Of a stretch of 64,000 nt of DNA, positions 11,895 through 64,000 are shown piece by piece; the first letter of the stretch is position 1; the number at the start of each line of letters is the position of its first letter. This stretch comes from a virus. Taxonomy: Duplodnaviria > Caudoviricetes. The notes below the pieces were generated by a model. The model saw only the letters and a list, made by a program, of their open reading frames with translations. It made no database searches and was not told the DNA's origin. The stretch is from positions 1 through 64,000 of the IMG/VR virus record IMGVR_UViG_3300032038_000035; one strand, written 5' to 3'. A program made the position numbers and the translations under genes.

Positions 11895-14800
11895 TTATAG
11901 ATGATTATAGTTTAAATTGGTTCTTGTACGTTTAGCTAATTTTGAATGTAACTGGGCTAATCTATCTTTCTGTCCGATACTGGATTGACCTTTCGTTGCT
12001 GACATGGTTGGTGCTTGTGCAGTATTAGGCTCGCCATGACCGATGCTATTTGATTTAGCATTAGATGGACCAGCTTGTGTTACTTCTTTAGGATTAACAG
12101 CAGAATCTATAAGCTCTATGAGTTTATCAATTCTAGATGTTACAGGAGAAGAATCCATTACAACGTGCATAGGATTATCTGCATCGCCCATATATACGTC
12201 ATTCGTATATATGTTATCATTGTCACGCATATTGTATCCTGCATCGCCGTTACCAATAGATGTTGGTATTAGATTCATATTAGAAGGTATAGAATTAATG
12301 ATATGAGCGGGTAAAGGATAGTAAACTCCATTCCATGGATTTTTACCATTACCTTCACTTGTAATCATACTATACATTCCGTTTATTCTGTTTCTCCAGC
12401 CTTTTCCATATTTACCATAATTAGAGAAGCCTGATATTGTATTAAACATTCCTTGTCTAACCTGATCTAACTCATTGCTAGCACCGGGACTTGTAACTGC
12501 AGAATAGAATGAAGGAACTGTTGCAGGAGCAACTCCAGCGAACTCAGCACCAAGTATAATAGATCTCGGGTCTTTCATGCCTCTCTTATTATACTGAGCT
12601 GCAGCTCTACTTATGTAATCCCATGCATATTCGTTCATCATTGCATCTTGTGCAGTAATAAGTGCAGGTTTCATATCAGGATACTGTGCAATATATGCTT
12701 TAATATCACTAGGATTTAATGAATGGTTGCCAATACCTGCTGCTATTGTATTCATTATGTTTCTAGTAGTTTCTGATAAATTAGGACTCTTAGCTGCAGT
12801 AGTAAATACAGTTTTAGCATTTGCATTATAGAAACCACCGCGTCCTATAGTTACACCAGACTCACCAGATAACCAAATAGGATTAAAGTAAATTTTATCT
12901 ATATCTGCAGGATTCTTAACATCGCCACCAGTCTCAGCTTTGGTCATAAGATCCATGAGATAATGTAATGTATTGGCTTCATTCCCTGCTGAAGGTATAC
13001 CATTACCAGCACTTGTCTTTGCCCAGCTAGGTAATAATGAGTACTCATCTGTAGGCTGGCCAGATGATATTTGCATACCTTTAATTTTATTATACATTTC
13101 GCTCGCTATATTATCTATAACAGCGCCAGTACCACCACTTGAATACTTGGATGCATATTGATACATCTTTTCATCAGGATACTGTGAGATTGCTTTCTGT
13201 GCAACCAACCATGTATAAATATTAGCAATAGTTTGTGTTACATATTTCTTATAATTAACAGATGCCGCAATATCTATCAGTAACTGATTGTATCTGGAAT
13301 CGGTAGTTAATGCTGAATAATTACCAGGATTAATTGTATATTTGCTAAGACCATTTTTATTGAATTCTGAATTAACTTCTGTATTACTTGAATAAGCAGA
13401 ATATGCAGAATCGATTGAAGATTTAACAAACGCCGCATCTATAATAAGCTGAGGATTGGTTATTGCTGCAGATGTATTATCGGTATTTGATGAATATCCA
13501 CCAGTACCGCCACCGCTTATACCAGAACCAGCGTCGGAATACGAACCAGTAGATCTAGATGAAGAATACAATAAACTTTTATCGCCAGATATTATCGATC
13601 CGATAAGATTGAATCCGAAATCGGTAAGATCGGATACCAAGTTAGCTATCCATTCTGAAACAGATTTAGCACCCTTTGATCCACCGGCATTTATATTTTG
13701 TGTCATTCCGCTAGCGAATATATTTCCAGAATCATAATTTACAGCCATTGGTGTATACGCAGTGCCGGTTGTAGTACCACCAGATGCATAAGTAGAATTA
13801 CTATTTGAACTCATTCCTTCGCTATATGTTTTAGCTAATTCAGGATGCGCTGATGCCCATGCCGAATATGTATCATATTTGTTACCGTCTGGGAATGTCT
13901 TTAAGAATGCTTCGCTTGCAGCGTCATTTGAAGCTGCAGCAGTTTTCATAGCTTTAAACATGTCCTCGGGCTTCTGCTTTACAAAATTACGTGTAGCTGG
14001 TTTAACTGCGCTTTTACCAAATATAACAACTCTGCGTATATCTGGATATGATGCAGTTGAAACTGCATTCCTAAACGTTTCCATCGGAACCGTATATATC
14101 TGATTACTCTTACCGTTGTATTCTGCACCAGTATTTGGGTTATCAACTACAACAAATTCTTCGCCAGCACTATTCTTATACAATCCAGCCAGTAAAACTC
14201 CATGCTGACTATTACTTTTTGCTTCATCTGGATTTGCAGTTCTACTAATAATTGGCTTCATTTTAGCACTTGTGCCATTATTTGAGCTAAATACGATAGG
14301 ATTACCTGCACTAAGATTAGCGTATAATAGTCTAAAGAAATCTTCCATTGATCCATTATATTTAACGCCATCCGCGCCTAAGAAATCATAATTAGATTCA
14401 CGCCATGGCACTTCCATGCCAAATATTTCAACTAATCGCTTATATGCATTATCATAAATAACCTGATGTGCGGAATTATTTACTTCAGGATGTTGTCTGA
14501 GTAATGTTGTTGGTGAAAATGATTTAGCAATATCAGAGAATTTTGTACTTCCACTGAGTATAGAATTCAGATATGCATTTACAAATGAATTATATACACA
14601 TCCTTCTGGTAATGCTCCAGTATAACCAAATGCACCGCCATTTCTGTTAAATGTTACATTACCATCTATGAGCTCATCGTCCCATGTTGAATATGGAGAA
14701 TTCGCATCGCCAACATGACGTCCATAACCAATAGCAGGTCCTCTTCCTATAGACCAAGCATGTGTCATGCCTTTAGTGAGTCTATTCATAGGAATATGTC

Positions 14801-17800: not shown

Positions 17801-20800
17801 CTTTTTTCATAAGTTCGAAATAGCGCTGCTGTTCTTCGGTAGTATAACCAAGATCAGAAAGCATTCCGCCTCTATCAATGTGTGAGCCATGCATCATTCT
17901 ACGGAAATAGAATTTGCTGTCATCTATACCAAGACGTTCTTTCACAGCATGTACACGGTTTCCAATGAATTCGCCTATAGGCTTCGTTATGTTCTTAACA
18001 CGTCCACCAATCGCTTTAAGACCAGTAGAGAATATGCCAAGCATACCAGTACCAAGTATCTGTTTGAATATCGCATTAGCTGTTCCAGCAGCAAGCACTG
18101 ATCCAGCTAATATTGGGTGACCAGTTATTGCTAAAGGTGTAGCAAGAATAGCACCCATTAATCCACGTAAAATACTTTGACCATATTCACCTGTAAGTGC
18201 TTTACCGATACTTGAAATACCTTCGCTCATTTTATCAAATACGGTCTTACCTTTTTCTTTAACTTTATCGGCTGCAGTTGCAGCAGATGCGCCAAAGCGT
18301 TTCAATGGATTTACTACATAATCATCTATCATTCCGCTTCGTCCAAGCAGATGCGGAAGTTTACCCTGAGCTTTATAATAATGCTCATTTATGTATCCAA
18401 GTCTATCCCAACGATTAGCAATATTAGAAGGAAGATCACTAAGATATCCGCCTTTACCAAATATGTGACGTGTTCTATTTAATTTCTTATACGTTTCATT
18501 CTCTTCAGCAAGTCTATTTTGCAATGACGTCCATCCGTTAACAACGCCGCTCTTTATATCAGTAAACTTATTTTTTACGTCATTCTTTATTTTCGGAAAC
18601 ATCTTTGTTATGTCATGATCAGGATTTATACCAATGAGGCTATCGTTGAAGATCAGTTCTTTGTATATTTCCTTAAGCTGCTTTGATCTAGCTTCGCGTC
18701 TTTCTTTTTTCTTATCAGCTCTATATTCTTTGCCGCCAATTATACTAGCAAATACATTAAATGGTACAGAAGCAGCTTTAAACATTAATTTCGATCCAAT
18801 TGTAACTGCATCTATTGCTATATCAGTAGCGCCTTCTGCAACTCTTCCAACAGTATTTTTCAAACTATTAAGGAATCTTGTTACAATTGTACCATCCTTA
18901 CCGGTAATAACTTGCTCTAAGAATTTAGCTATACCATTACCAACAGAATCTTCATTTGAATTAGTAATCCTCTTTAAGAAGCTTTTAAATCCGAGTTTCA
19001 GATTATTGGTAACGTCAGAAAATGCAGATTTGAAATTCGTCTTTATATCTTCGCCAGCTTCAATTAGTCTATTGGTAAATCCACCAAATACACCGCCGGA
19101 TACATATTTGCGTCCATTAGAATCGGTTTCAACTTTGCCAAATATATACTCTCTTGTCTCTTTATTTCCAAGAGTGAAGCCGCCCATTATACCAATTGCA
19201 GAGCCAAGTACACCGGATAATGTTAATCCAATAAGACCGCCTTTAACTGCACCGGGAATGCCCTGAACCAAGCTATCGACAGTTTTTACATATGACCATG
19301 TCTGATCATTTGACCATCCCTGTGACTCTGCATATGCAAATGCATTCTCTTTAGCTTTGGTTCTTAATTGATCCATTATGTTTTTGGTTTCAGTTGCATT
19401 TTCGCCAGTTGCATGGTAACTCTTAAGACCAGCTCCTTCAATTATATTACCGGCTTCGTCTCTGGTATATCCTGTATATTTTTTGCCATCTATATACATG
19501 AAACGTTTATATCTGATATCGTCCACAATTTGATTATATGCATCAGATAATAAACCACCATGACGTAAATCACCTTCACCTTTATCACCAAGTAATAAAT
19601 TCTTTGCTTTACCGGTTTTCTCAAAGCCTCTTTCCCTATTTTCGCGTTCTGTAGTACCAAGAGCCGTTTGAGTCATAATGCCTAAGTTTATAGACATTTC
19701 AGTTAATTTCTTAACGAGAATAGATGCAGGATCATCGTTCTCATCTATATCAATAAAGCATAATGACTCATCACTAGGCTTAAGAGCCATTGATTTAATT
19801 GTCTCGGGGCTATATCTATCAACGACACGATTTACCGCTTTAACGACTTCCATTTCATGTCCTTTAAAGCGCTCATCAGAATCGCCAATGGCTTTAAGGA
19901 GTTTCTGTTGCCATTCTTCTGACATGCTATTGTAACCGCCATTATTAAGCATAGTTACGATGTCATCACGAACTTCTTGTGATAATGACTTATCGAGGAT
20001 CATTTCACCTTCATGGACTCTAGCTATCTGATCTGCATTAATTCGTGTCGCACCAGTAGCGAAGAAACCAATAGTATTCGGCTGTTTATATTGAGTTGGC
20101 GCATATAATTTGTCTTCATCATCAACCCAGCCTAACGCTGATTGTATACGATGAAGAATGCCCTCATTTGTGCTCTGTTCTTGCTCCTCTTTGATTTCTT
20201 TTGGAGTCTTATATCTAAATTGTCTAAAGTCGGTGTCATCAACTTGATCGTATCCATTCTTGATATTTTCATTCCAGATCTCATTAAACTTGGGATCATC
20301 TTCTAAAACACCTTCGCCGAATTTATCAACTTTAATGCGCTTTCCCCAATTATCTTTAGATTTGGAATATATGTAATACTCTATCGGCTCGCCATCATCG
20401 TTATAACGAATTTGATATTTCATGCCACTGCGATAGTCATCTGCACGGTCACGAATTTCGCTGAAAAACATAGATGGAGAAAACTCTTTAAATTTATCTA
20501 TAACGGCTCTTATACCGGAATCCCTAAATTCTTGTGCAAGATCCGATGAATATTCAAGCATTGCATCAACTGCTGCACTAACTCTATAATTGGCAAAATT
20601 TTTGCTTGCTACATGTTTTGATTCAGCCAATGCCATTTTATTATTATATGAAGACTGCATTCCTTTGAAGCGTCTATCGGCGTCTTCTTTAAGTGCTCTA
20701 TATGCTGGGTCGTCTTCATCTTCTTTAACTTGGCCACTTCGTATGGCATCAGTTAATGCGGCATCAGCAAATGCTCTAAACATATCAGTTGTATTTCTTA

Positions 20801-24152: not shown

Positions 24153-24198
24153 AACGATTTCCTCCATATTAGACAAAAATGATTTATTATTCCACATA

Positions 24199-33962: not shown

Positions 33963-36900
33963 TTACCCGAAATAATCTTTTATTACTTTCCTCTTTAACT
34001 CTATAAGCACTTTATTACCAAATAGGTTAGTATAAACTGAAGGAGTCTTTCTAGCAAGTATAGACAAAGGAGATACAAATGCACTAACTTCTTCCTCAGG
34101 TCTAAACTCGCTCCAAGGTTCCTGTCCTTCTTCTATAACATGAGATACAACGCCCTTAAGAGCACAGAAGTTTGTGGTTTTATCACCCTTCTTTATTATA
34201 TCCTTATGCTTTATATAGAATTCAATGAGAATACCATCGCCAACTTCTTCACCTTTGACTTTACCATATTGAGTTGTACTCTTCTCGGCAGTTTCAGTTA
34301 AGAGTTGGCCACATTTATAGAAGTTATTATCTGTAGGATTCTTATACTTATCTAAGAACTTATCTTTCTTCTCTATCTTCTTATTATAGTCTTTAACTAT
34401 CTTCTGTAAAGAAGGAGACAATTCGGATATATCTACAGTGTAATACATCTTTATGTCTAATATCTCACCACTATCAGTTGCTTTCAGTGTCGTAGAGTTA
34501 GATTCTACTAAAGACTCTTGAAGATTATTCTCGCCTAATGCTTTAGAATATTCCTCTAAGAATTTAGCAACTTCTTCATCACCATTATGGTTGTCAAATA
34601 CTATAAGAGGATCACCAACGTTTACATGGTCTCCTATTTTAACCATTCTATCTACTTTAGAATTAGCAGGTAATGCTTTAGTCTTCTTTACTATAGCATA
34701 GTATGCTAATTGCTCAGACAGTTTCTTTGTCATAGGCTCGGAGTCTTCAAGAATATCGTCTATAGATGTAATAGCAACTTTAGCAAGTACACCGATATTC
34801 ATAGATGCACCAATGTCATCTGAATTCTTTGTAAATGCTCTCTTCTCAGCAGCTAGAACTTCATTCTTCTTAAACTTATCGCCGACTTTTAATTTCGTAC
34901 TAAATTCAAGCTCAACATACATTCCGTCTGCAGAGTTTTTCTTTATTACAGGTTTAGAGTCAAATGAGTCATGTGTGCCATCTTTATATTCAATGATATA
35001 AACACCATCTTGCTCATCTACAACTTTACCATCCTGCTTAGCTACAAAGCAGAATTCATTGTGCATGTGATAAGGAACGATAGATTCTACCTTATTGCCT
35101 ATAAGTACAGGGCTCATCTCATCTGTAAGCACCATATGTGCAGTTTGTCCTCTCATCATCGCTGATCTCTGAGGGTCATCGTGTCTTAATGAACCCGGAG
35201 TGAGGAGTTCTGCAGGTGTCATAAGCTGAGCCATGTTGAGTTCGTTTACTTCATCCATAGGAGTTATATCAACGTATCCATTAGTAGAAGTAATATTAGG
35301 CTCAAGAGTAAGAAGTCTTATAATACCATTATTACCAGCATGGTCGGTTGTAGCACCGAAGATACCAACCATTGAGTCATCATATGCTCTCTTAGCCATA
35401 GTATAGCCATCTGTCTTGTTTATACCGGACAGGGATATATTCTTGGCAGATGTTGATGCCTTGATATTAACTGAGTGAGTTTTATCAAGAGTCATTACAG
35501 GATTGAGTATCGACTCATCTTCTATAAGAGTTGCAGATGACAATGCAGACATTACCACATTAGGATTAACTGATATCTTAGTAGGATTCTTCTTATAAGC
35601 AGTCTTTCTATAATTACCATATGCGTTAACTACTGCCTGATATACGATCTGAGATACAACTTCGTTACCTCTTATACGCATATTAATAAGGTCATTAGAA
35701 GAAGCATATTGGTTATTAACAAGAAGCTTACATGTATAGAAGAATACGCCTATTAATGTATAAGGCATATTGAAATCTTTTAATATTTCAACAGTTTTGG
35801 GATCTAATAAGAAGTTTTTAAACTGATCGAGATTCATTGCCTGATTTGCACTTGAATAAAACATCGGGAGCATATCTATATATGTATCTCGACTATTAAG
35901 CTCAGCAAATGTATACTCTTCAAGAGGTAAACCATATGTGCCATTTAATAATAGCTGATTTTCAAATGGATATTTATCCCATACGATTACACAATCTTTG
36001 AGCTGAATTATTCCTTTGGAGAATCCATAATTCTTGCCATATTTAGCTATTACAGCTTTTTCATTATCAAGTCTCTCATAAGGAATTCCTGTTTCTTGCA
36101 TTACCTTATCGAAACCTTCGCAGAATAATAAGAAAAGAATTACAGGAATGAATTTATCAAGTACCTTTACTCTGGTATACGCTAATTGAGATTGTCCGGT
36201 CTTGGTATATTTTATCTGAGATCTGTCAGCTTCAGGTATTAAATCATATAATAGATCAGAAAAACTATTTCCTAATTCTATTGGTATGTATTTACCTGAA
36301 GAAACCTTATATCCAACAGGAATCTTTTCACCTTCTTCATAAGGTTTTACATCACAGCCATGCTCTTTAAGAAATCCAATAAGCTCAGTTATATCCAGAA
36401 TAAATACATTTTGTCCAATGTTAAACTTGGTAACAGATTTAGAAATATAATCGAAATCTAATGTAGTTGCATATTTAGTATTCTTTACTTTAGCATTACC
36501 ATATTTAACATGACACTTATCATTTGCCATAATATATTTCTTTATAGCAGCAGTCTTAGAGTCTACAGATTTACCATGTCTGAATACTGTACACTTCTTA
36601 TACATAGTACAGATCTGAACTTGGTCAGGACCTATCTTTACAACAGGCTTGAATATTCTTTGCTTGAGTATGTGTTTCTTACTACCGCCAATGAATACAT
36701 AGCAATCGTCTATGATGATAGGTACATCAAATCTGAGAGTATGTGTGTGATTGAATTCATCTCTAAGATGATAAGTAAGAGTCTTCTTCTGATTAAATAC
36801 ATCAGATGTATCTTCCTCTTCTATAGACTCTATGAATACTTTAATATCTGCATCTGCTAATGATGCTACTGCATTATTAATATCTCTCTTATATTTTTTC

Positions 36901-38306
36901 TCTGTATAAGATTTATCAAAGTTTACATACTTAGATGATTTGATATAAGGGTTATTGGTAACGATAGCATTAGTGTAGTCAGACTCATCTATTATCTTAG
37001 ATGCCATTTCTTCTACATCTTGAGATAATATTTCATTCTGTTTAGCTATACCGGCATCTATAAGCTTAAGAGCTTTCTTACTTCTCTCAGGCATATAGTT
37101 ATTAACAAAGACTTTCTCTTTAACTTCGTCTTCTATAATAGCACCAATTACTTCATCACTTTCACCAGATAAATCAGGATTATTGTCTAAGAAGTTATTT
37201 ACTGTATCAGATATTTCATCAGACAATTTATCTGTCATTGATACAGAATCATCTTCTTCCAATTCTTCTGCTTCAGCTATACTAAGCTCAGTATCAAGAT
37301 TGTACTTCTTCTTAGTAGGTTTAGCTTTTACAGAAACATCTGTGATTTCTTCTTTCTTTTCTGCATCAGAAGAAAGATCAGATCCTGTAAATCTTCTGAC
37401 CATAGTGTTAACTATAATCTGTCTTCTAAGTTCTTCCTCAGGAGGAACTTTCTCAGTCTGAATTATTTCTTCTTCATCTTCATCCACTGTATAAGTGTAT
37501 ATATGCATCCTTCTAAGTTGTGTCTTAAATTTAGCATATATCATTTTAGCAGCTCTCGGATCTAACATATCCGGAGTAAGCTTGAGCTTTAAGAACTCAT
37601 GCTCTTTTTCATTTACTATAATTATTTCAGCATTAAGATCTGTCAGTGGCTTTAATAAAGCTTGGAACCTATATAGGCATACTAATAATATAGATATAGG
37701 ATTATTCATAGAATCTTTGCTAAGACCTATAGTAGCTCCTGCCTTTCTCCATTCTGCATATGAGATATATACAATTTTAGTCTTATATCCATTTGCGAAC
37801 GGAAGTGTATTAGCTATTTTATTAGCAGTAAACTTTATATACTGATCGCACATTATTTGTATAGATCTATTAAGCCTATATTGGAAAAATAAATCTTGCC
37901 ATTCACTGATATCTTGTATCAGTGATGTATGTCTGGATGCAAGTGCTGCAACCATTTGAGGTCTTCGATAAGCTAGATATGAATCTAAGCTTTCACTATA
38001 CATCTTAGGCATCTCGTTTATGTAATTACGTTTTACGAGCTTTGTGCCAATTTTCTCTTTATATATGACATCCGCTGTCATATATTTTATTCCATATTTA
38101 CGCCACACTACAAAATCTGAATTAAGGCTCCTAACAGCGGCTTCCCTATTAGGGTTTAATATAATAACACCGGTTTCTTTTCCATGCGGTGAAGTAGGTA
38201 AAAATAAGTGTGGCTGATTCTTGTAATATCTATTATTTACAATAGAAGTGTAAGCAACTTCCATTGCTGGTGTATTACTAATCACAATATCACAACCTTT
38301 ACACAT
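33963..38306 (-). CDS. Phage multisubunit RNA polymerase beta-like subunit, probably the virion RNAP
   Basis: HDDPQRSAMMRGQTAH, GDKTTNFCALKGVVS and SPLSILARKT correspond to RpoB motifs; ends early like split phiKZ-type beta subunits; late promoter directly upstream (start may be GTG at 38285). Confidence 0.9.
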   Translation of the reverse strand: MCKGCDIVISNTPAMEVAYTSIVNNRYYKNQPHLFLPTSPHGKETGVIILNPNREAAVRSLNSDFVVWRKYGIKYMTADVIYKEKIGTKLVKRNYINEMPKMYSESLDSYLAYRRPQMVAALASRHTSLIQDISEWQDLFFQYRLNRSIQIMCDQYIKFTANKIANTLPFANGYKTKIVYISYAEWRKAGATIGLSKDSMNNPISILLVCLYRFQALLKPLTDLNAEIIIVNEKEHEFLKLKLTPDMLDPRAAKMIYAKFKTQLRRMHIYTYTVDEDEEEIIQTEKVPPEEELRRQIIVNTMVRRFTGSDLSSDAEKKEEITDVSVKAKPTKKKYNLDTELSIAEAEELEEDDSVSMTDKLSDEISDTVNNFLDNNPDLSGESDEVIGAIIEDEVKEKVFVNNYMPERSKKALKLIDAGIAKQNEILSQDVEEMASKIIDESDYTNAIVTNNPYIKSSKYVNFDKSYTEKKYKRDINNAVASLADADIKVFIESIEEEDTSDVFNQKKTLTYHLRDEFNHTHTLRFDVPIIIDDCYVFIGGSKKHILKQRIFKPVVKIGPDQVQICTMYKKCTVFRHGKSVDSKTAAIKKYIMANDKCHVKYGNAKVKNTKYATTLDFDYISKSVTKFNIGQNVFILDITELIGFLKEHGCDVKPYEEGEKIPVGYKVSSGKYIPIELGNSFSDLLYDLIPEADRSQIKYTKTGQSQLAYTRVKVLDKFIPVILFLLFCEGFDKVMQETGIPYERLDNEKAVIAKYGKNYGFSKGIIQLKDCVIVWDKYPFENQLLLNGTYGLPLEEYTFAELNSRDTYIDMLPMFYSSANQAMNLDQFKNFLLDPKTVEILKDFNMPYTLIGVFFYTCKLLVNNQYASSNDLINMRIRGNEVVSQIVYQAVVNAYGNYRKTAYKKNPTKISVNPNVVMSALSSATLIEDESILNPVMTLDKTHSVNIKASTSAKNISLSGINKTDGYTMAKRAYDDSMVGIFGATTDHAGNNGIIRLLTLEPNITSTNGYVDITPMDEVNELNMAQLMTPAELLTPGSLRHDDPQRSAMMRGQTAHMVLTDEMSPVLIGNKVESIVPYHMHNEFCFVAKQDGKVVDEQDGVYIIEYKDGTHDSFDSKPVIKKNSADGMYVELEFSTKLKVGDKFKKNEVLAAEKRAFTKNSDDIGASMNIGVLAKVAITSIDDILEDSEPMTKKLSEQLAYYAIVKKTKALPANSKVDRMVKIGDHVNVGDPLIVFDNHNGDEEVAKFLEEYSKALGENNLQESLVESNSTTLKATDSGEILDIKMYYTVDISELSPSLQKIVKDYNKKIEKKDKFLDKYKNPTDNNFYKCGQLLTETAEKSTTQYGKVKGEEVGDGILIEFYIKHKDIIKKGDKTTNFCALKGVVSHVIEEGQEPWSEFRPEEEVSAFVSPLSILARKTPSVYTNLFGNKVLIELKRKVIKDYFG

Positions 38307-39100: not shown

Positions 39101-39144
39101 GCATCGCCAATTATGCTTATATTCCGGTGTGGTGTAACCTATAA

Positions 39145-39498
39145 TCAGGTTGCACCGCACCATTTGCAGGCATATCCCCCGCGAATCTGTCTCCCGCCAC
39201 AGCAGGGACAGGTTTCCGTGGTGAATATTATCTGCGGATAATATTCACCACTGTCGCGATCGAAATGCATCACAGTGAGACCAATGTCTCGCTGCTGGCA
39301 AATCGTCACGACCGCAAGGAGAGCAACCGTCAGCCCTGTGGCGTACAGGGTTAACTGGTCACAATCCTCGGGGAGCTCGCTGCGGACATGCTCAGTGAGC
39401 GCATCCACATCGAGGGGATTTACCTGAGTATCGAACAGAAAGTCCGACACATCAGGTATGTCGTGCCTGCCACGACATAATCCATATGTGTATTTCAT
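39145..39498 (-). CDS. Small alpha/beta protein (GRH motif) with C-terminal Zn ribbon, in a stand-alone cassette
   Basis: GLCRGRHDIP...LYATGLTVAL...HFDRDSGEYYPQ followed by CPCCG...CKWCG; GGAGGTG RBS; visibly higher GC than its flanks. Confidence 0.75.
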   Translation of the reverse strand: MKYTYGLCRGRHDIPDVSDFLFDTQVNPLDVDALTEHVRSELPEDCDQLTLYATGLTVALLAVVTICQQRDIGLTVMHFDRDSGEYYPQIIFTTETCPCCGGRQIRGGYACKWCGAT

Positions 39499-39548
39499 TA
39501 TATCACCTCCTTATGATAAACAACACACATTTTGTTGATTGGCACTAT

Positions 39549-55527: not shown

Positions 55528-56163
55528 TCATAATGTTACAAGTTTCTTTACCTTCTCTGTATCAAAGATATTATTGTCAAAAGAATCGGTAGATTCGCAT
55601 AGATCCAAGTATTTCCATATACGATATTTCTGGTTGTCACTTAGATACTTATTATATTTCTCTATGAAGCCAGATACATCTCCGAAACCTTGTTTTATAT
55701 TCAAGAAGATATCTCTATTATGTACAGCTTCATGGTTAGTCACAGCAAGCATTACTACTTGTACATGTAAATCATAATGCTCTTGTATAAGCTGATTTGT
55801 AATCCTGTATGTAGTTATCTTCTTACCGGTTTCTATAAACTCTTCTAGTATAATAGATGCATAATCGTATAATGTAAATAGAGGACCATGGTGCATTTCA
55901 ATTGTAGCATCTGTACTAAATATCTGTGATGATACCTGACAGAAATCTATACCAATTATATTGGTTACATACTTTACAAAGCCTGCATAGTCTTCATCGG
56001 ATCTACACATCTTCTCACATGATTTTACAAATTTATTACGATTATCTGCCATGACGAAAAAGTCTATCGGTTTATATAAAACTATATTATCAAATGCGTC
56101 ATCTTCAGCTTGAATCTCTTTCTCGTAATTTCCGATGTATTTTATATTAGGAATTCCTATCAT
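55528..56163 (-). CDS. HNH-like protein B, paralogue of A
   Basis: DFC...IEMHHGPLFTLYD...VMLAVTNHEAVH; GACA-N6-TAA promoter at 56180-56192. Confidence 0.6.
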   Translation of the reverse strand: MIGIPNIKYIGNYEKEIQAEDDAFDNIVLYKPIDFFVMADNRNKFVKSCEKMCRSDEDYAGFVKYVTNIIGIDFCQVSSQIFSTDATIEMHHGPLFTLYDYASIILEEFIETGKKITTYRITNQLIQEHYDLHVQVVMLAVTNHEAVHNRDIFLNIKQGFGDVSGFIEKYNKYLSDNQKYRIWKYLDLCESTDSFDNNIFDTEKVKKLVTL

Positions 56164-56286
56164 ACTTAAACACCTTCTTTTAAATGGTTGTCGGATTTAC
56201 GGAAAAATCTTACGGCAAATGATGGTTAATTTGCCGTAAGTATATGAAATAATAACCGTTCCCGTAGGCTGGTTATTATATTGCCA

Positions 56287-56781
56287 TTACATTGTTTTCT
56301 GTATCTTAATAATACCATTTACAACTTCGTTATAGAAATTAGTCATATTTGGCATAGGAGCTATAGACTTTGGTACATATCTCTTTATAGCTGCAGTATC
56401 AGCAACCTTGTTTATAGGAACTTCATCTAAATTATCATCCAGATAAACTTCTTCAAACTGAACTGTGTTCATAGGATATACTGCTGCTATAGAATATGTT
56501 TTGGGATCGTTTAATACAGCAGCCTTAATAACTAATATGTTATACAAAGGATATACTGTATAAATGCCATTATTATAATCTGCTATAAGATCTCCGGTAT
56601 GGGAGAACGGTATATAGAGTTTAAAATCTCTTACAAAGGTTTTTGTATACAAACCCGAAGAATTGAATATAAGTGCATTGTTTTCGTACTTATAGTCATT
56701 TACAAATACATCAGGCTTTAGCTTTATATTACTAGGTTGACCCGATAATATCTGGTATAGTGTCTTGGTAGATTCTATCAT
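56287..56781 (-). CDS. Hypothetical protein
   Basis: ATGA overlap with the upstream gene. Confidence 0.7.
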   Translation of the reverse strand: MIESTKTLYQILSGQPSNIKLKPDVFVNDYKYENNALIFNSSGLYTKTFVRDFKLYIPFSHTGDLIADYNNGIYTVYPLYNILVIKAAVLNDPKTYSIAAVYPMNTVQFEEVYLDDNLDEVPINKVADTAAIKRYVPKSIAPMPNMTNFYNEVVNGIIKIQKTM

Positions 56782-57266
56782 GATATAGCCTCCAATATAA
56801 AAAAATTATTAAATACTATTGCTGCAAGTATAGCCCACACTACAGCTATTATAGCCATTACAATAAATATCTTTTCCAAAATATGAATTACATATATGGC
56901 ATTTTGTAATTTACCTTTCATACAAGATAATTCTCTTGTAGAGTAATATACGTCCGATATATTCACATCGTATATATCATAGTCTTGTCCAAATGCTATT
57001 TTCCCAACTTGTTTTAGATTACATTCTTTATGTAGCTTCCTAAGTGTATTATTCATATATAGATTTATGAATATCAATGTAGCTACAAGAAGTGGAATAT
57101 TAGCTAATACAGACAAACAGAATATAGTAGCACATATATTAAATATAATTAATGATTGTACATGAAGTCTCGTATATTCCATTAGTAGTTTTCTTACATT
57201 TTCAAACTCTTGCTCTAATATAATAACCATAGAGTTGTTTGTGTTTAATGATGATACTCCAGACAT
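56778..57266 (-). CDS. Membrane protein
   Basis: About three hydrophobic segments; start MSGV; ACA-N6-TAA at 57283-57294. Confidence 0.65.
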   Translation of the reverse strand: MSGVSSLNTNNSMVIILEQEFENVRKLLMEYTRLHVQSLIIFNICATIFCLSVLANIPLLVATLIFINLYMNNTLRKLHKECNLKQVGKIAFGQDYDIYDVNISDVYYSTRELSCMKGKLQNAIYVIHILEKIFIVMAIIAVVWAILAAIVFNNFFILEAIS

Positions 57267-57347
57267 TTTATCACATCCTTTGTTAATATTCTGTATAGAG
57301 TACATCAAAAAAATATCATGATACACATATGTGTATCATGATTTATC

Positions 57348-58544
57348 TCACCATGGTAAGATATAACCTTCAATATCCTTTATGAAACTACCATATATAT
57401 CTAAGCGATATATATCAGATTCATTCATGAATACGAAGTCCTTGACATAATGTCCACCATAATTACCCTCAATATATACGTATCCCTTATCGTCGAATGA
57501 ACCAGATGGCGCATAAGGAGTTAGTTTGAAATTGTATGAAAAATATGGTACTGTTGATTCTCCAAACGGAATCAAACCATAGTCAATCGATGGATATAAT
57601 CCATTAGTGTTAATCATAGATAATAGCTTATGAGTTACCCTTAGAATAGATACAGCCATCTTGGTATAAATCGTAAAATCAATGAGACTTAGAGCATTTC
57701 TGGTGCTTGTTCTCTTGGGTATAAAGCCAGATGTATCTGATGGATCTGTCCAATCATCATTCTTAAACACATTACCATATCCATATTCTACAACACCACT
57801 TTCAAAGAACGGAGTTGCATCTTTTATCATGATCCATTCCTCTTTTGATATGAATGTGTGAATTGGAATATCTTGCATCAATGATTTTGATATTATGGCA
57901 TCTTTACATGCATCCAGAGTTATGTTTACTTCAGATGTATGCTTAACGACTTTTGCACGTTTATCATCATATATAACTAATGAGAACTTAGATATCAGTT
58001 TAGATAGATCCATGTCATATATAATACATAAATCACTTATAACATGATCTAATCCATATATGGATTTAGGCTTAGCTCCATCTATAGAATATGATGATAT
58101 ATTGTATGCATACAATGGACCGGTTGGATTTAATTGAGAATGCTCATTTATCTTCGTTTCTATGTTGAATACGACATTGAAAATGATCAATTCTTCAAGA
58201 TTAAATAAGAACGTGAATAATGAGTGTGGGGTATCTATATTAACACTCATATCTTGAGAATGTATCACATTATTACCTGAATATCCAACACTTCTGAGCA
58301 ATTCCAATTTGTATTTTACATGAATTTTTTGGAAAATCTTAGGCAATACTTCTCTTGGTAATATGAAGTATAAATTCTCAAATGCAGATACAGGAATTGC
58401 GACATATCTTATCTCAGTATCAGATACATACTTATGATAATTACTATTGAATTTCTCTATAGTAATATACTTCGCTTTTAGTTCGTAATCTGATTCACCT
58501 TTTAGTAAAGCCAGATTAGCTTCAGGCTTAAATTTGTCTTTCAT
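57348..58544 (-). CDS. Hypothetical protein
   Basis: GGAGG RBS, 398 aa. Confidence 0.75.
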   Translation of the reverse strand: MKDKFKPEANLALLKGESDYELKAKYITIEKFNSNYHKYVSDTEIRYVAIPVSAFENLYFILPREVLPKIFQKIHVKYKLELLRSVGYSGNNVIHSQDMSVNIDTPHSLFTFLFNLEELIIFNVVFNIETKINEHSQLNPTGPLYAYNISSYSIDGAKPKSIYGLDHVISDLCIIYDMDLSKLISKFSLVIYDDKRAKVVKHTSEVNITLDACKDAIISKSLMQDIPIHTFISKEEWIMIKDATPFFESGVVEYGYGNVFKNDDWTDPSDTSGFIPKRTSTRNALSLIDFTIYTKMAVSILRVTHKLLSMINTNGLYPSIDYGLIPFGESTVPYFSYNFKLTPYAPSGSFDDKGYVYIEGNYGGHYVKDFVFMNESDIYRLDIYGSFIKDIEGYILPW

Positions 58545-58555
58545 GCTATATCCTC

Positions 58556-59740
58556 CTACATACGACTCTTTATAGAAACTTTTACATCAGATATTAACAT
58601 GGATAAGAAATCCAAATTATCTGTCTTAATGAGATTGCTTGTTATAGAATCTCCAATTAATGCATTATGTGCGAAATTATCTGTCATATTTATATTACAA
58701 GTATAGCACACAGATATATCGTCATCAAAAAGTAAATTGTTATCAATCTCAGTCATCAGTACATCATTTATATCTGCTATGCCTGTAGCAATAAATAGAA
58801 ATTGCTTAATTGAGTACATGTAGATCGTATCGTCAAACTGTATATTGTATAAATAATCGGATAACTCATACAATGTGCTACAACTTATATCATGCTCATC
58901 TAAATAATCTTCATCATTAGGTAACTCTAGTTTAGAGTATACACAATATGATAAATCATATCTACGGCATCCACATAGCATCATATATTCTTTAAATAAT
59001 ATCGTCATATATAGAGGCGTACCTGTTGTCATTAGTAATAGAGTCTTATCGGATGATGTCACAAAATTTGTCTTTGTAGTATATGTAACATACTCATCAT
59101 TATCAAATATCATATAGTCTTCATTACTGCCATTTAAACTGTCATATCTAGAGTCTTTATATGATATAGTATTCTCTATATAGTGTATTAATTCGCCAAT
59201 GTGTATTGCATTAAAATCTGACCCATATACTATAGATGCTTTAGCATAACTATTTCCGGATTCTGCTAATTCGTTTATACTATTAGCAAATAATTCAGGA
59301 TCTAATTTATACTCACATCCATCTACGCTAATATGGACTTCAAAGTTTATAAAGTATGGCTCAATATTATGATATTCTGTATACAATTCTTCACAACATA
59401 ATTCCAAATTATATAGAGATCCTATTAAAGAATATGAACTAGCTATATCATTAGACTCTAAATGAATCGCATTGGAATATCCATAATCCAGTCCATCATC
59501 TGTAGGTGTACATAATAACATCTGTGCATCTATAGTTATCTTTATAGGAGATATTATTACTTTAGCGTCTTCTTTATAATATCTGGTAGAGTTCTTTCCA
59601 TATACAGGAAAGAACATAAATTTTACGTGATCTTTCTTAGCATAAGATAATATACTTGCATCTGTATTATCTATAAACTTATATGAATTATCGTCATATA
59701 ATACAAATATATCTTTATTTACGTAATCCAATTTATACAC
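58556..59740 (-). CDS. Hypothetical protein, Tyr/Asp-rich
   Basis: 394-aa ORF; TATATATTATA motif upstream (~59759-59769). Confidence 0.7.
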   Translation of the reverse strand: MYKLDYVNKDIFVLYDDNSYKFIDNTDASILSYAKKDHVKFMFFPVYGKNSTRYYKEDAKVIISPIKITIDAQMLLCTPTDDGLDYGYSNAIHLESNDIASSYSLIGSLYNLELCCEELYTEYHNIEPYFINFEVHISVDGCEYKLDPELFANSINELAESGNSYAKASIVYGSDFNAIHIGELIHYIENTISYKDSRYDSLNGSNEDYMIFDNDEYVTYTTKTNFVTSSDKTLLLMTTGTPLYMTILFKEYMMLCGCRRYDLSYCVYSKLELPNDEDYLDEHDISCSTLYELSDYLYNIQFDDTIYMYSIKQFLFIATGIADINDVLMTEIDNNLLFDDDISVCYTCNINMTDNFAHNALIGDSITSNLIKTDNLDFLSMLISDVKVSIKSRM

Positions 59741-59814
59741 CTCCTCAATTACTTTCCATATAATATATAATTCATTTTTACTATATTTAACTTAGAGATA
59801 AAAAATATACTATT

Positions 59815-60330
59815 ATGGAGGTAATAGATATGAAGAATAAAGAACGTTTTGATATGATGGATATTACTAGGAGAGCTATATTAACAGATAGAAAAGAAGT
59901 AATAAAGCATATCTTACATATAGTAGTTAAGGATTTTGGTCTTAGTGTCATATTTGCTTATCTTAATCCTAACTTTGGTGAATTAACTGACTATATTATT
60001 ATAACTAAGAAACCTAATACTGATACTATGGTATTATTTAGTGCTATAGCATATGGTGAATGCTCTACTACTCAGTTTGACTTATTTGCATCTAAGAATA
60101 AGATAGAAGATTTTAAAAATAATCTTATTAATAATGCTACTCAATATCCGGTTAAACTATTTGATGAATCTCTTAGAGAGAAAGGTCTTTCTACTAATCC
60201 TAAGTCTGACAACTATTGGTTGGATACTAAATTAGAATCTAATCAGAAAGTTATTAAGATATTAGAAGAACTCTTCCCTGAGTTATCTAATAAGAAGAGA
60301 ATTGTATCTTCCAGACTTGGTAAGAGATAA
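59815..60330 (+). CDS. Hypothetical protein
   Basis: ORF with GGAGGT RBS before the internal MKNKE. Confidence 0.7.
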   Translation: MEVIDMKNKERFDMMDITRRAILTDRKEVIKHILHIVVKDFGLSVIFAYLNPNFGELTDYIIITKKPNTDTMVLFSAIAYGECSTTQFDLFASKNKIEDFKNNLINNATQYPVKLFDESLREKGLSTNPKSDNYWLDTKLESNQKVIKILEELFPELSNKKRIVSSRLGKR

Positions 60331-60364
60331 AAAATATATGGATGGTTTAAACCATCCATATATT

Positions 60365-60787
60365 TTATGTCAATAATCCAACTATCAGTATTAACACCGT
60401 TAATACTGATATAACAGTAGTGATTATATTTATCACTGCTGTATAGGTTCCTATCTTTAATACACTCATACTATCATCTATATAATCTTCATTAGTAGTA
60501 TATGATTTATCATCGGGATGACTCTCATAAAATACATTTACCTTTTTCATAAATATACTTCTACTAATGATAGTTGATACTAATAATATTATAGCAGCTG
60601 ACATCATAATTATGGTTAAATATGATGCTACTCCACTATATATTAGTAATAATATAGATAATACTATTAACTCTGCACTAAATAGGATACCATCCTTAAT
60701 ACATTTATCCATTGTTAGTTTTGCATTCTTTGCGCCTTTAATATATGAAGATATAGATATAGTATTCATGATATTCACTTCTCTCAT
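60365..60787 (-). CDS. Membrane protein
   Basis: Three hydrophobic segments. Confidence 0.65.
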   Translation of the reverse strand: MREVNIMNTISISSYIKGAKNAKLTMDKCIKDGILFSAELIVLSILLLIYSGVASYLTIIMMSAAIILLVSTIISRSIFMKKVNVFYESHPDDKSYTTNEDYIDDSMSVLKIGTYTAVINIITTVISVLTVLILIVGLLT

Positions 60788-60795
60788 ATATTTTA

Positions 60796-61212
60796 TTATA
60801 TAAAAGTTCTTTTCAAATTCTCATAATCTATATCTAACTCACATAGTCTATCTAATTTATCTCTATAACTAATATATTCATCTATATTAGTTATATTAAA
60901 TATAGGATGACTATATATAAATTGATATAGACTATATCTATTATATATATGTGGATTATTTTCATATAGTATATTTAATATTCTATATTCTATAGTAGTC
61001 ATATACATATCTTTATAAGGAGATATTAGTATATAATCTAAATCATTATCTGTTATATAGTCTATATCTTCTATATGTATATTAGATATATTATCATCGG
61101 ATATATTATTGAATATACTTCTTGTATTAATAAATTCTTTTATATCTTCTTTACTATATGTAACTAATAATATATCTCTCTTATATAATACTCTATACTT
61201 ATTATAATACAT
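60796..61212 (-). CDS. Hypothetical protein, extremely AT-rich
   Basis: GAGGGGG RBS; TATATATAATA motif upstream. Confidence 0.55.
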   Translation of the reverse strand: MYYNKYRVLYKRDILLVTYSKEDIKEFINTRSIFNNISDDNISNIHIEDIDYITDNDLDYILISPYKDMYMTTIEYRILNILYENNPHIYNRYSLYQFIYSHPIFNITNIDEYISYRDKLDRLCELDIDYENLKRTFI

Positions 61213-61309
61213 ATATGTATCCCCCTCTTTCTGTTTATTAATCTTATTATATATAAACCATTATATCTTTAATATAAATCCGGATTTATAATAACTCTAA
61301 GGGGAATTT

Positions 61310-61340
61310 GAAAATTAGGGACCTTTGGTCCCTAATTTTC
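61310..61340. terminator. Terminator-like hairpin
   Basis: gaaaattagggacc-ttt-ggtccctaattttc. Confidence 0.7.
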
Positions 61341-61439
61341 TGTAATAGTGCAGGTTAAGTTTAGAGTATTTGATAGTATTGACATAAACTGGTATTTTAA
61401 AGTATTGGTAGGTTAGACTTTGTATTATATATAGAAGAA

Positions 61440-61720
61440 AAAATAAGTGGGAGACCCTTAGGCCTCTCATGTGTTGGTCTTATTGTCTTTTATGTATCTC
61501 TTAATTCTCTCTATTTTCTGGTCGTTTTTGGTCTCGGATGTGTTTGTGGGGCGGACCGCCCCCCTGAAAATTCGCTCCGCTCATTCTTTTTTTCTCCGAC
61601 CTTCGGTCTCTAATAGGAAGCCCTACCTGACAATACGCTTCAGTTTCCCTAAACTCCGGATTTAGCCACTACCCCTTAAGGTCTGTTATCCTCACGTCTA
61701 GTCCCCCTGGCAACATCATT
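61440..61720. other. Strand-asymmetric non-coding element: candidate replication origin or second late ncRNA
   Basis: Pyrimidine-rich plus strand, five GGTC sites, GGGGCGG-A-CCGCCCC palindrome (61548-61562), promoter at 61719-61731. Confidence 0.4.
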
Positions 61721-61731
61721 ACGTTATTGTT
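61719..61731 (-). promoter_or_regulatory. Late-type promoter AACA-N6-TAA with no downstream CDS
   Basis: aaaaatatAACAataacgTAA; the upstream context is shared with 62249-62261. Confidence 0.65.
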
Positions 61732-61744
61732 ATATTTTTTTTTA

Positions 61745-62250
61745 AAAAAAAATAATTTATATTTTTATCTTTTTGGATAGAGATAAATCTATAAATTGGA
61801 TATAGCAATATGTAACAATGCAACGTCTTGTTGAGTAATATCTAGAGAATTTAAAGTGAGCTCATGTAATGAAAGACATACAAATGAACGTATTAGATAC
61901 GGGTGAGCTTAGATCGAAATCAATAAGCTCTTATGCTACAATCATTACGGTGAACGAACTTTCAAGCTAAGCCTGACTCATAATCATGAGATTAACCTTT
62001 CTTCAGTGAACGTCTAGAAACCCCCTCCCTGGTGGTTAGCGTAGTGAGTTCAGGGGTAATCGAGTCTTTCGACAAGCCTACTTTTCATTCATAGTTTTAC
62101 ACCCTATTCGCATAATGTACTTTCGTACTTCTGTTTTTCACACTATCATATGTACACCTTTTGAGCATACAAAGGACATGACTGTTCCATTCCCGCGGTC
62201 ATATCCAGACAATCACCTTGCCATGTACTCGCGTACCTAGATTCCGGTTT
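61745..62250 (-). ncRNA. Large ornate structured ncRNA (~500 nt; core 61840-62242)
   Basis: Own late promoter, terminal hairpin plus T tract, ten nested helices, and GCGA/GAAA/GAAA/UUCG tetraloops and G-U pairs all on the minus strand; no ORF. Confidence 0.75.
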
Positions 62251-62261
62251 AACTATATGTT
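62249..62261 (-). promoter_or_regulatory. Late-type promoter AACA-N6-TAA driving the ncRNA
   Basis: aaaaatatAACAtatagtTAA. Confidence 0.7.
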
Positions 62262-62273
62262 ATATTTTTATTT

Positions 62274-62315
62274 AAAAAAATATAGTGAATACCAAAATTT
62301 GGTATTCACTATATT
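62274..62315 (-). terminator. Intrinsic terminator
   Basis: aatatagtgaataccaaa/tttggtattcactatatt plus T tract. Confidence 0.85.
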
Positions 62316-62318
62316 ATG

Positions 62319-62696
62319 CTATATAGCATAGCCTACTTTATCTATATTGTAAGTATAGACACCTTTACCTGAATAGGTAACTGATATAGCATACATATCA
62401 CCAGATACAAATTCAGGTTTTAGTTTCTTAGTAGTATCTCCTGTTATGTAATTACACCAAGGAAGTATTCCTCTATTATATAAAGCTTCATCTATAGCTT
62501 CATATAATAGAGTACATTCTCTACCAGTGCCTTGGTATACTATAGCAGTACTATGTGTGTTATAGCATTTATACTCTATGCTCTCATATAGATCTGGCCA
62601 TATATGCTTCTGTTGTTCATACCATGTTTCATATAATGCTTTGGATTGACCTATAGCATTATCTACTAAAACAGAAATTTCATTAGGCTCTACCAT
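62319..62696 (-). CDS. Hypothetical protein located between two ncRNAs
   Basis: AAGGAGTG RBS, TATATTATA motif upstream, own terminator. Confidence 0.7.
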   Translation of the reverse strand: MVEPNEISVLVDNAIGQSKALYETWYEQQKHIWPDLYESIEYKCYNTHSTAIVYQGTGRECTLLYEAIDEALYNRGILPWCNYITGDTTKKLKPEFVSGDMYAISVTYSGKGVYTYNIDKVGYAI

Positions 62697-62759
62697 AATG
62701 AATCACTCCTTTCTTATATAGATATAATATACATTCCAAAAAAATATCATATTAGAGCA

Positions 62760-62960
62760 AAAAATAAATCATCAATAGATGATTTATTTTATTCATGGCT
62801 ATTGCCATAGTATTCCTCCTTCCGGAGCTGTAGACGTCAGTCACTTCGCCTCCACTATTGCAGAGACCACGCTCTCACGAGCAGGCTGACATCCATATAG
62901 GCATTACATACATCACGTGGTGTATGTAACGTTTTCCCTATATGTCTACGTTTATTATTA
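62760..62960 (-). ncRNA. Candidate ~200-nt multi-branch ncRNA or structured leader
   Basis: Bipartite promoter, closing stem GTAGAC/GTCTAC, nested stems, GUGA and GGAA tetraloops, terminator at 62759-62790. Confidence 0.65.
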
Positions 62961-62964
62961 CTTA

Positions 62965-62997
62965 TAGAATATATAAAGCAACATACGTAATTTACGG
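62965..62997 (-). promoter_or_regulatory. Bipartite promoter CCGT-N20-TATATTCTA
   Basis: Third exact-spacing copy. Confidence 0.7.
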
Positions 62998-63008
62998 GGG
63001 GTACGTAC

Positions 63009-63042
63009 AAAAAATATAGCCACCCGAAGGTGGCTATATTTT
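63009..63042 (-). terminator. Terminator with C(UUCG)G loop
   Basis: aaaatatagccacc-ttcg-ggtggctatatttttt. Confidence 0.85.
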
Positions 63043-63050
63043 AATCGGAA

Positions 63051-63530
63051 TCAGTTATTGGGTTCAACCGAAGTGGGCATGTTAGGTAACGGGTATTCAA
63101 ATTCTAGAGTCTGTGGATTGATCTGCGGATTTGGACGACTATTTTCGAGATACCGTATAAGTTTGGACACTATATGCTTTCTTTTAATTGTTGATATCGA
63201 GCTAGTATCCACTCTCAAATATATATTGGATTCCAACTTATAAGCAGCATCCAATATTAATTCCGGTGGCACATGCCCAGATTCTGCAAGGCTAAGCAGA
63301 ATCTGTTTTGCTGCAGCTGCTTCATCAACATATTCCATCACTTCACGATCTTCAAAGTATCTGAAGAAGTTGTTTATCTTATCTACTATAAGATAAACAA
63401 CCGCGTCGTGTATCTCTTCTTGTCTTGCTGCTTCTTCTATAGATTTTTTCTTGTCAAGCGCATCTTGATATATATCCATGTAATCAATTTCGAAATCTTC
63501 GTTGATATTATAATACTTATTTTTATTCAT
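63051..63530 (-). CDS. Hypothetical protein
   Basis: GGAGGT RBS. Confidence 0.7.
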   Translation of the reverse strand: MNKNKYYNINEDFEIDYMDIYQDALDKKKSIEEAARQEEIHDAVVYLIVDKINNFFRYFEDREVMEYVDEAAAAKQILLSLAESGHVPPELILDAAYKLESNIYLRVDTSSISTIKRKHIVSKLIRYLENSRPNPQINPQTLEFEYPLPNMPTSVEPNN

Positions 63531-63742
63531 GATATACCTCCATATGATGTATCGATTAATTGCATGTGTCCAGATTCATCGAGACCCCAATGCTCTGGAT
63601 CAGGTATATTTGTAACATACATTTCTCCAATCCTTATCAAATCTTCTTTGGTCATTTCTGTAATAGGACGTAATTCGTCACCTTCTTTTGCGAAGTACTT
63701 CTTAATATTATCATCCAGCTTATCGAATTCTTCTTTTGTCAT
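63527..63742 (-). CDS. 71-aa hypothetical protein
   Basis: GGAGGT RBS; PDPEHWGLDESGHMQLID. Confidence 0.65.
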   Translation of the reverse strand: MTKEEFDKLDDNIKKYFAKEGDELRPITEMTKEDLIRIGEMYVTNIPDPEHWGLDESGHMQLIDTSYGGIS

Positions 63743-63752
63743 AAGATACCTC

Positions 63753-64000
63753 CTATGCGTTGTTGTTGGAATAAATGCTTACCCAACATTTTTCTTGTCC
63801 ACACGGGTGTTTTGATGTGGTATTATTATATCTCCTCTCTTCTTCCTTAGGACATTTGTAACATTTGTAAACGTTATCTCTATTATTCATAAATGCATTG
63901 TAGGCATAGAGATAACTCTTGCCTATTCCTTTATAGGTTTCTCCATTAGCGTCGGGGAAGTCTTCATATAAAGACCGCCAATACTTTATGTTTTCGTACA
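63753..64000 (-). CDS. Cys-rich hypothetical protein (5' end outside the window)
   Basis: Open frame ...NVYKCYKCP...HPCGQEKCWV...; not in the ORF track. Confidence 0.6.
   Translation of the reverse strand, partial: YENIKYWRSLYEDFPDANGETYKGIGKSYLYAYNAFMNNRDNVYKCYKCPKEEERRYNNTTSKHPCGQEKCWVSIYSNNNA

Follow-up and report, generated by a model that had tools for sequence, protein, structure and literature searches.

The window analyzed here, a stretch of 64,000 nucleotides (nt), is the first 64 kb of the viral contig IMGVR_UViG_3300032038_000035, and our subject is an island at 61440-63010 whose minus strand is non-coding except for one gene, encoding a protein of 125 amino acids (aa). The sequence-only reading of this island had placed three separately promoted non-coding units around the gene and had taken them for a temporally staged set of RNAs that may share a protein partner; its observations were confirmed in part, and its interpretation was supported in part. 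Two of the units belong to one large structured non-coding RNA, of a family specific to phages; unit 2 is its 5' half and unit 1 its 3' half. The features of this part of the island are as follows.

62319..62696, minus strand: the 125-aa gene, a passenger and not a conserved partner
62272..62315, minus strand: intrinsic terminator of the 125-aa gene, a 17-bp stem (hairpin 62315-62279) with a U-tract
62250..62284, minus strand: late-type promoter of unit 2, with T/A tracts, AACA at 62261-62258, N6 and TA; predicted start of transcription (+1) at A 62250
61812..62250, minus strand: unit 2 RNA, 5' half of the large RNA (from RNA contigs, covariation and conservation)
61720..61754, minus strand: internal second copy of the late-type promoter, with a T9A9 tract and AACA at 61731-61728; predicted +1 at A 61720
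61441..61720, minus strand: unit 1 RNA, 3' half of the large RNA, purine-rich in its 5' part
61466-61451, minus strand: terminator hairpin of unit 1, followed by a U-tract
61308..61342, no single strand: a further terminator hairpin, two-way, that separates the RNA genes from a gene for a 138-aa protein

Six-frame translation of 61430-61730, 61740-62270 and 62740-63010 gave no open frame, and recoding would not rescue one, because all three kinds of stop are present in every frame. The three islands have a G+C content of 45-53% against ~25% in their surroundings. ARAGORN found neither a tRNA nor a transfer-messenger RNA (tmRNA), and a tmRNA identity was therefore rejected. Rfam 15, with families that include GOLLD, ROOL, group I and II introns, phi29 packaging RNA (pRNA), 6S, tmRNA and hammerhead, gave no match at gathering score over the 64-kb window; at E<=10 there was only noise, at 10-24 bits against cut-offs of 50-110. 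The RNA family is thus uncatalogued, being without an Rfam match, and the claim of non-coding transcription units with phage-type promoters is supported. The hairpins said to bound the units are present at 62315-62279, 61466-61451 and ~62793-62765, but a canonical terminator is lacking in unit 2, where the RNA contigs described below end at 61812-61835. The two-way hairpin at 61308-61342, which surfaced in weak Rfam alignments, has an inverted, 100% identical match in the close relative L053.

Units 1 and 2 are headed by ATATAACA-N6-TAA, which is found exactly twice in the whole contig, as minus-strand copies at 61719-61735 and 62249-62265. The shared context that had been pointed out for these promoters is well borne out, with 28 of 31 positions identical, a score that none of 300 shuffles reached. 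In the Bacillus jumbo phage AR9, early promoters read AAATATATATTAT-N6-G and late promoters AACA-N6-T-A/G(+1) (PMC5312081), and the promoters of units 1 and 2 fit the late consensus, with AACA-N6-TA at 61731-61720 and 62261-62250. This element is kept at the start of the RNA gene in all seven lineages compared here. Intergenic DNA as a whole shows no enrichment of AACA-N6-TR (17 occurrences against ~20 expected, a rough estimate). The likeness to AR9 further includes the extended AT-rich promoter box of unit 3, recurring about eight times, and the presence of genes for beta/beta'-like proteins.

The contig is linear virus DNA of 102,742 base pairs (bp) with 34% G+C and a CheckV completeness of ~41%. 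It appears to be part of the genome of an uncultured jumbo phage from the rumen that has multisubunit polymerases of its own, because the nearest relatives of its large terminase are found in jumbo phages (Bacillus BpSp, phiKZ-like), because it encodes an RNA polymerase beta'-like domain at genome positions 81340-81768, above the Pfam cut-off, and a beta-like domain at 34113-34682, below the cut-off, within a 1447-aa open reading frame (ORF; 33963-38306, minus strand), and because near-identical DNA is found in gut metagenomes of cattle, goat and sheep (12 studies). The ORF with the beta-like segment is possibly a fused virion polymerase subunit.

Relatives were collected as contigs carrying homologues of the two neighbour proteins of 125 and 138 aa, the 138-aa protein serving as search anchor. 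By this protein L003, L004, L005 and L053 are close to the window and form with it the window clade; L006 and L007 (plus L014 and L018) are ~57% identical, and L021, L022, L023 and L052 34-43% identical. The identical 138-aa protein is also found on a contig of 236 kb. The seven lineages compared are the window clade, L006, L007, L021, L022, L023 and L052. A blastn search against phage GenBank gave no match, protein and pattern scans of IMG/VR gave no true relative (26 pattern matches being chance), a protein scan of JGI found nothing, and a pattern scan of JGI found only L014 and L018, both near L007.

The architecture of the two RNAs is best read alongside these relatives; the elements below are all on the minus strand.

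62249-62246 with 61997-61994: helix P1 of unit 2
62236-62225: GCGA-capped hairpin of unit 2
62223-62216: segment UGGCAAGG of unit 2
62215-62007: clade-specific insert of unit 2, ~210 nt
61990-61977: hairpin Ha
61975-61963: hairpin Hb
61952..61966: 5' strand CUUGAAAGUUCGUUC of the long-range helix, in unit 2, covarying over seven lineages
61951 to ~61835: 3' domain of unit 2
61577-61563: 3' strand of the long-range helix, in unit 1
~61564-61547: G-run and GGUCCG hairpin of unit 1, with an A/C-rich tail after it

Five of the lineages (L007, L021, L022, L023 and L052) have a single promoter and a single RNA gene. In the last four of these, one promoter, TTTTTTTATAAACAAA.ATAACATA.A.GTAA, precedes one non-coding stretch of ~350-400 nt, and this one-piece RNA starts with the core of unit 2 and ends with the block of unit 1; the single RNA of L007 likewise holds both. 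The common plan begins on the 5' side with P1 (AACC/GGUU, with AACU/AGUU in L007 and AUCC/GGAU in L052), a UAAUC linker, Ha and Hb (CAGG..CCUG or CGGG..CCCG), continues with the strands of a long-range helix of 12-19 bp enclosing a variable inner domain, and closes on the 3' side with an invariant GGGG..G.UCCG element with its GRUCCG hairpin, an A/C-rich tail and a terminator. The unit-1 block, GAGCGGAGCGAAUUUUCAGGGGGG.GGUCCG, is conserved in all lineages.

The long-range helix covaries strongly. Its 12 aligned positions are all paired in six lineages and 11 of them in L052, 8 of the 12 have changed on both sides, and a full partner arose by chance in only 0-4 of 500 shuffles per lineage. For the RNAs of L021 and L023 the minimum-energy fold includes this helix, which there extends to 17 bp. 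In the window, its two strands lie in different units, and the inter-unit pairing was judged by a scan for contiguous helices, whole-length RNAduplex having been dropped for its meaningless full-length duplexes. The 15-bp duplex is the best contiguous helix between units 1 and 2 (matched or beaten in 1 of 300 shuffles), and it is present in the minimum-energy structure of the cofold, with a gain of -18 kcal/mol over the separate folds. Ha and Hb are supported in a similar manner: 98% of cells are paired with changes on both sides (0 of 500 shuffles). Taken together, units 1 and 2 belong with each other because of the covarying long-range helix and descent from a single RNA gene. That they form one RNA family with this helix, and that the 5' half is expressed, we hold with high confidence.

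The first four pairs of the helix take up the 3' strand of Hb, so that Hb and this extension of the helix are mutually exclusive. The three strands vary together, CAGG/CCUG/CAGG in some lineages and CGGG/CCCG/CGGG in others, as might be expected of a strand exchange; since the three-strand change is one evolutionary event, however, it is only suggestive of such an exchange.

Among the close relatives identity amounts to 98.4-100% in unit 2 and 99-100% in unit 1, whereas the neighbouring 125-aa gene is only 90-93% identical in DNA, a contrast that speaks for constraint on the RNAs. Unit 1 of L053 is 99-100% identical to that of the window, and unit 2 of L005 differs mainly through insertions that lengthen hairpins. 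The unit-1 tail carries at 61524-61533 a tandem GACCAAAAAC / GACCAGAAAA, one copy of which is deleted in L053.

The lineages differ most in what they add to the core. The loop of P1 is enlarged in the window clade, L006 and L007, where it contains UCUAG, a GNRA-capped hairpin, UGGCAAGG, a variable domain and CUGAAGA. Both the length and the sequence of the hairpin that follows UCUAG vary among the three lineages, but each keeps a GNRA cap (GCGA, GCAA, GAAA); in L005 this hairpin is swapped for a longer one. The variable domain measures ~210 nt with several GNRA hairpins in the window and is a short hairpin in L006. In one RNA contig, X17, 117 nt of the unit-2 insert (window 62009-62127) are replaced by 182 other letters, and X17 apparently comes from a strain with a different expansion domain. 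The second promoter copy lies within the inner domain of the window clade and L006 only, and is absent from L007, L021, L022, L023 and L052. It is near-identical over ~45 nt between the window and L006, in flanks that have diverged beyond alignment. A tree of the neighbour protein groups the window clade, L006 and L007, and leaves a single gain of the internal promoter undecided. In L007 there is, between the RNA and the next gene (5390-5670), a ~280-bp array of ATATAATAT-like units with almost no G+C, found in the L007 lineage only.

Expression was assessed by comparing four rumen metatranscriptome assemblies from two studies with window 56000-64000. Save for two short patches at 56.0-56.5 kb, the RNA contigs cover unit 2 alone. 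Contig X16, of 426 nt, matches 61812-62236 end to end, X17 matches 61813-62064 and 62076-62238, and X18 matches 61835-62082; the 5' half thus accumulates in rumen metatranscriptomes as an RNA of ~425 nt. The contig 5' ends at 62236-62238 lie 12-14 nt inside the predicted +1 at 62250, although contigs cannot show true ends. Because carry-over of DNA would cover the phage evenly, the unit 2 RNA is far more abundant than its neighbours. One of the two patches, 56000-56170, falls at the 5' end of a conserved 211-aa gene (55528-56163), and the other, 56424-56456, just upstream of this gene, is a 33-nt partial match with both ends loose.

We propose the following scenario. Both late-type promoters would be read late in infection by the multisubunit RNA polymerase of the phage, as in AR9, and the 3' half would also be made on its own. 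This 3' half would then dock on the 5' half via the 15-bp helix, with opening of Hb, and the ancestral fold would be rebuilt in two pieces. The assembled RNA might act in trans late in infection, in an architectural or protein-binding role, and this last step is the weakest. We infer the two-piece state from what is seen: the units can pair, this pairing covaries, relatives have the RNA in one piece, and a promoter lies within it here. Such a split RNA family, with two late-made halves that dock and a late role in trans, is the best overall explanation at hand, and we favor it with moderate confidence. Late transcription by the phage polymerase, judged by analogy with AR9, is reasonably probable; whether the 3' half is synthesized separately and assembled in trans we regard as evenly balanced; and a trans-acting architectural or protein-binding role is put forward tentatively, ranked above a cis-acting leader, an origin or R-loop, and an intron, ribozyme, retron or guide RNA. 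The fullest form of the idea, a naturally split RNA that arose by promoter duplication and whose assembly in trans displaces a hairpin, yielding an ornate RNA heterodimer that serves late in infection as an architectural element or a catalyst, is doubtful as a whole.

Several observations weigh against this scenario. Units 1 and 2 on their own fold no better than shuffles (z of +1.1 and +0.2), and single-sequence fold z values of the two units range from near 0 to +1 on both strands; a poor single-sequence z is no evidence against structure here, because covariation is present. RNA contig X20 (61703-61918) runs from the end of unit 2 into the internal promoter, and no RNA contig was found on unit 1 beyond 61703, although such an absence proves nothing. 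Contigs reveal neither the ends nor the strand nor the timing of RNAs. The RNA has no conserved protein neighbour of known fold that would bear on its function, and the comparison covers only seven lineages, several of shared ancestry.

Because X20 bridges the internal promoter, read-through or one long transcript is possible, and the alternative that survives best, though we think it rather unlikely, is a single late primary transcript that functions as one molecule, the state found in the distant relatives. On this view the internal promoter would only top up the 3' half or be a recent duplication, and the 425-nt species would be a product of processing or termination. Besides the bridging of 61918-61703, such a view would accommodate the missing canonical terminator of unit 2 and the single promoter of five lineages. 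It does not readily explain why the internal promoter is almost unchanged in L006 despite diverged flanks, and a weak hint in the same direction is that RNA contigs of both studies end upstream of the internal promoter, at 61812-61835.

The position of the RNA allows for action in cis. As a leader, it might act on the polymerase transcribing it, like the put RNA of HK022, or it might be no more than a late operon's leader ended by termination, like the 6S RNA of lambda PR', and it would control whether transcription passes the terminators at 61466-61451 and 61342-61308 and enters the ~60-kb minus-strand block of virion genes. It lies directly upstream of the 138-aa gene and a syntenic block, on the same strand, in 7 of 7 lineages, an observation biased by the anchor gene, and two or three terminators separate it from this gene and block. 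The 138-aa gene, however, has by eye an early-like promoter element of its own just upstream, and known leader elements resemble the RNA neither in its size of 400-800 nt nor in its expansion domains and split form, making this reading improbable.

More improbable still is a function of the DNA itself, as a transcription-activated origin or a packaging site, with the unit-1 transcript forming an R-loop by AT-rich DNA and ACCAA repeats. The strong A-over-T skew on the RNA strand, the invariant G-run, the T9A9 tract, the ACCAA-type motifs spaced by ~10-12 nt in several tails (L006, L021, L023) and the near-G+C-free array of L007 could be accounted for in this way. Yet the covarying helices and the GNRA-capped hairpins indicate selection on RNA structure, the cumulative GC skew runs through 61-63 kb without an inflection, and the array is restricted to one lineage.

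The original model of three staged RNAs, tied together by CTAGACGT/ACGTCTA motifs and by the 125-aa protein as a shared partner, is by its own criteria largely refuted and hardly tenable any longer, although early-type and late-type promoters are both present. The CCAGGG..CTAGACGT strings are found where they were reported, but their similarity score of 18 was reached by 211 of 300 shuffles, and the motif is absent from L006, L007, L021, L022, L023 and L052; it is not this motif that joins units 1 and 2. The complementarity of unit 3 to units 1 and 2 is likewise at shuffle level (144 and 251 of 300, respectively), and the ACGUCUA match of unit 3 falls outside the top five helices. Of the proposed ties among the three units only that between units 1 and 2 holds, unit 3 being confined to the window clade and L007; with a covariance model and the flanks at hand, it was not found in L006, L021, L022 or L023. 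Homologues of the 125-aa protein occur only in the window clade, L006 and L007. The gene is thus missing from four of the seven lineages that have the RNA; in three of these four, L021, L022 and L023, the upstream genes were compared, and an unrelated protein family was found ahead of the RNA. The 125-aa gene is a neighbour, not a partner.

A number of known RNA types were tried and rejected: a group I intron (neither flank with an open frame or part of a split gene, no Intron_gpI match), a hammerhead, with its invariant CUGANGA and GAA around stem II, to which CUGAAGA ... GAAA in the unit-2 core might point (GAAA is GUAA in L007 and AAUC in L021/L023; no Rfam match), a retron or diversity-generating retroelement (no reverse transcriptase found), an omega-RNA (no TnpB/Cas12f-like partner, only a 13.7-bit zinc-ribbon match), and a CsrB-like GGA sponge (GGA count about as base composition predicts, by rough estimate and not formal test).

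Returning to the split RNA, a known parallel is the two-piece tmRNA of alpha-proteobacteria and cyanobacteria, in which an ancestral single RNA is made as two base-pairing pieces. As there, the fold would be rebuilt here by pairing of two pieces; the split would have arisen via an internal promoter duplicate, not via gene permutation and processing. GOLLD and ROOL are likewise large (400-800 nt), phage-associated RNAs of many helices (PMC5737381; bioRxiv 10.1101/2024.12.08.627333), likewise without a known function or protein partner, and ROOL also comes from rumen. Unlike them, the present RNA matches neither of the two Rfam models (E<=10), has no neighbouring tRNAs, and is split by an internal promoter. 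Large phage RNAs such as these are an open problem, to which the present RNA adds a further family that is in no catalogue. Its evolution can be traced from a minimal form of ~350 nt through expanded forms to the probable two-piece form, a series that separates the core (P1, Ha, Hb, long-range helix, G-run and hairpin) from dispensable parts. The split version also offers an experimental handle, as the halves can be made, mixed and mutated separately. Among Pseudomonas jumbo phages, phiKZ and 201phi2-1 reportedly have intergenic small RNAs and non-coding transcripts from promoters of the phage polymerase; our findings would add non-coding genes to an AR9-like scheme of early and late promoters in uncultured rumen jumbo phages.

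Unit 3, upstream of the 125-aa gene, consists of the following parts.

62950..62999, minus strand: early-type promoter, with a CCCCGTAAAT box at 62999-62990, the core TATATATTCTAT at 62975-62964, then AAGTAATAATAAAC
62818..62951, minus strand: structured core, a long hairpin and a three-way junction (GUGA- and AAUA-capped hairpins)
62757..62817, minus strand: variable 3' part, with CUCC-GGAA-GGAG and AUGGC-AAUA-GCCAU hairpins, an 18-codon frame and the terminator

A promoter had been claimed for this unit, and a promoter-like element is indeed present at 62975-62964, conserved in L003 and L007. It is one of about eight near-identical elements of the contig (CCGTA box, TATATATTCTAT, then TAATAATAAA), which stand mostly ahead of minus-strand genes at 65-90 kb; members, all on the minus strand, are at window positions 24198, 59758 and 62964 and genome positions 65200, 69556, 69894, 75744 and 90073. 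The layout of the class is an upstream CCGTA box, ~18 nt, TATATATT(C/A)TAT, 4-5 nt and (T)AATAATAAA. It resembles the early promoter of AR9, being similar and not identical: the early box here is TATATATTCTAT, with the CCGTA box upstream in addition. A temporal staging, with unit 3 early and units 1 and 2 late, would follow from the same analogy. Elsewhere in the class, the promoter TATATATTCTAA precedes ~350 nt without a long ORF and with a terminator at the end (genome 69190-69556, minus strand; L001 9190-9556), possibly a further early non-coding RNA.

The core of unit 3 has a fold z of -6.7 (0 of 200 shuffles). Across four sequences 41 of its pairs are retained, including 6 that have changed on both sides, and the long hairpin has been rewritten from end to end in L003, L004 and L007. 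The covariance model matches only the window and these three contigs. The unit ends in an AU-rich terminator hairpin at ~62793-62765 with a U-tract and, like unit 1, is without an RNA contig, an absence that again proves nothing. The 18-codon frame follows a Shine-Dalgarno sequence and in L004 stops after 4 codons, with the AUG-bearing hairpin kept; a type I toxin-antitoxin or dual-function small RNA was rejected on this broken frame and on the unrelated peptide of L007. Considered as a riboswitch or attenuator leader, which would have a constant gene after it, unit 3 has its elements in the order promoter, fold, terminator and ribosome-binding site, with no antiterminator by eye, and the next gene encodes 125 aa in the window versus an unrelated 155 aa in L007. 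The preferred reading of unit 3 is that of a small early RNA of ~200 nt in its own right, possibly a leader.

As to the neighbouring proteins, the 125-aa protein has no PHROG family, one Pfam match (XAP5) far under the cut-off, and an AlphaFold2 (AF2) model of low confidence (predicted local distance difference test, pLDDT, 54) that is unusable. The 138-aa gene is the sole constant neighbour of the RNA, but it is also the search anchor. Its model is good (pLDDT 87), but neither Foldseek (at E<1) nor VIA-align (at Z>=5) found a match for it in the PDB. Directly upstream of this gene (window 61213-61260, minus strand), TTATATATAATAAGATTAATAAAC looks by eye like a variant of the early box.

Three further genes of the contig deserve mention. 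A 3697-aa ORF (window 11895-22988, minus strand) carries a C39-like peptidase domain. The gene for anaerobic NrdD (genome 65327-68656, plus strand) is split by a LAGLIDADG intein, likewise in L006 and L007. An ORF of ~121 aa (window 39130-39500, minus strand), whose 13.7-bit match to a Cas12f1-like/TnpB zinc-ribbon family lies under the cut-off, has 61% G+C against 34% for the genome and was probably acquired from elsewhere.

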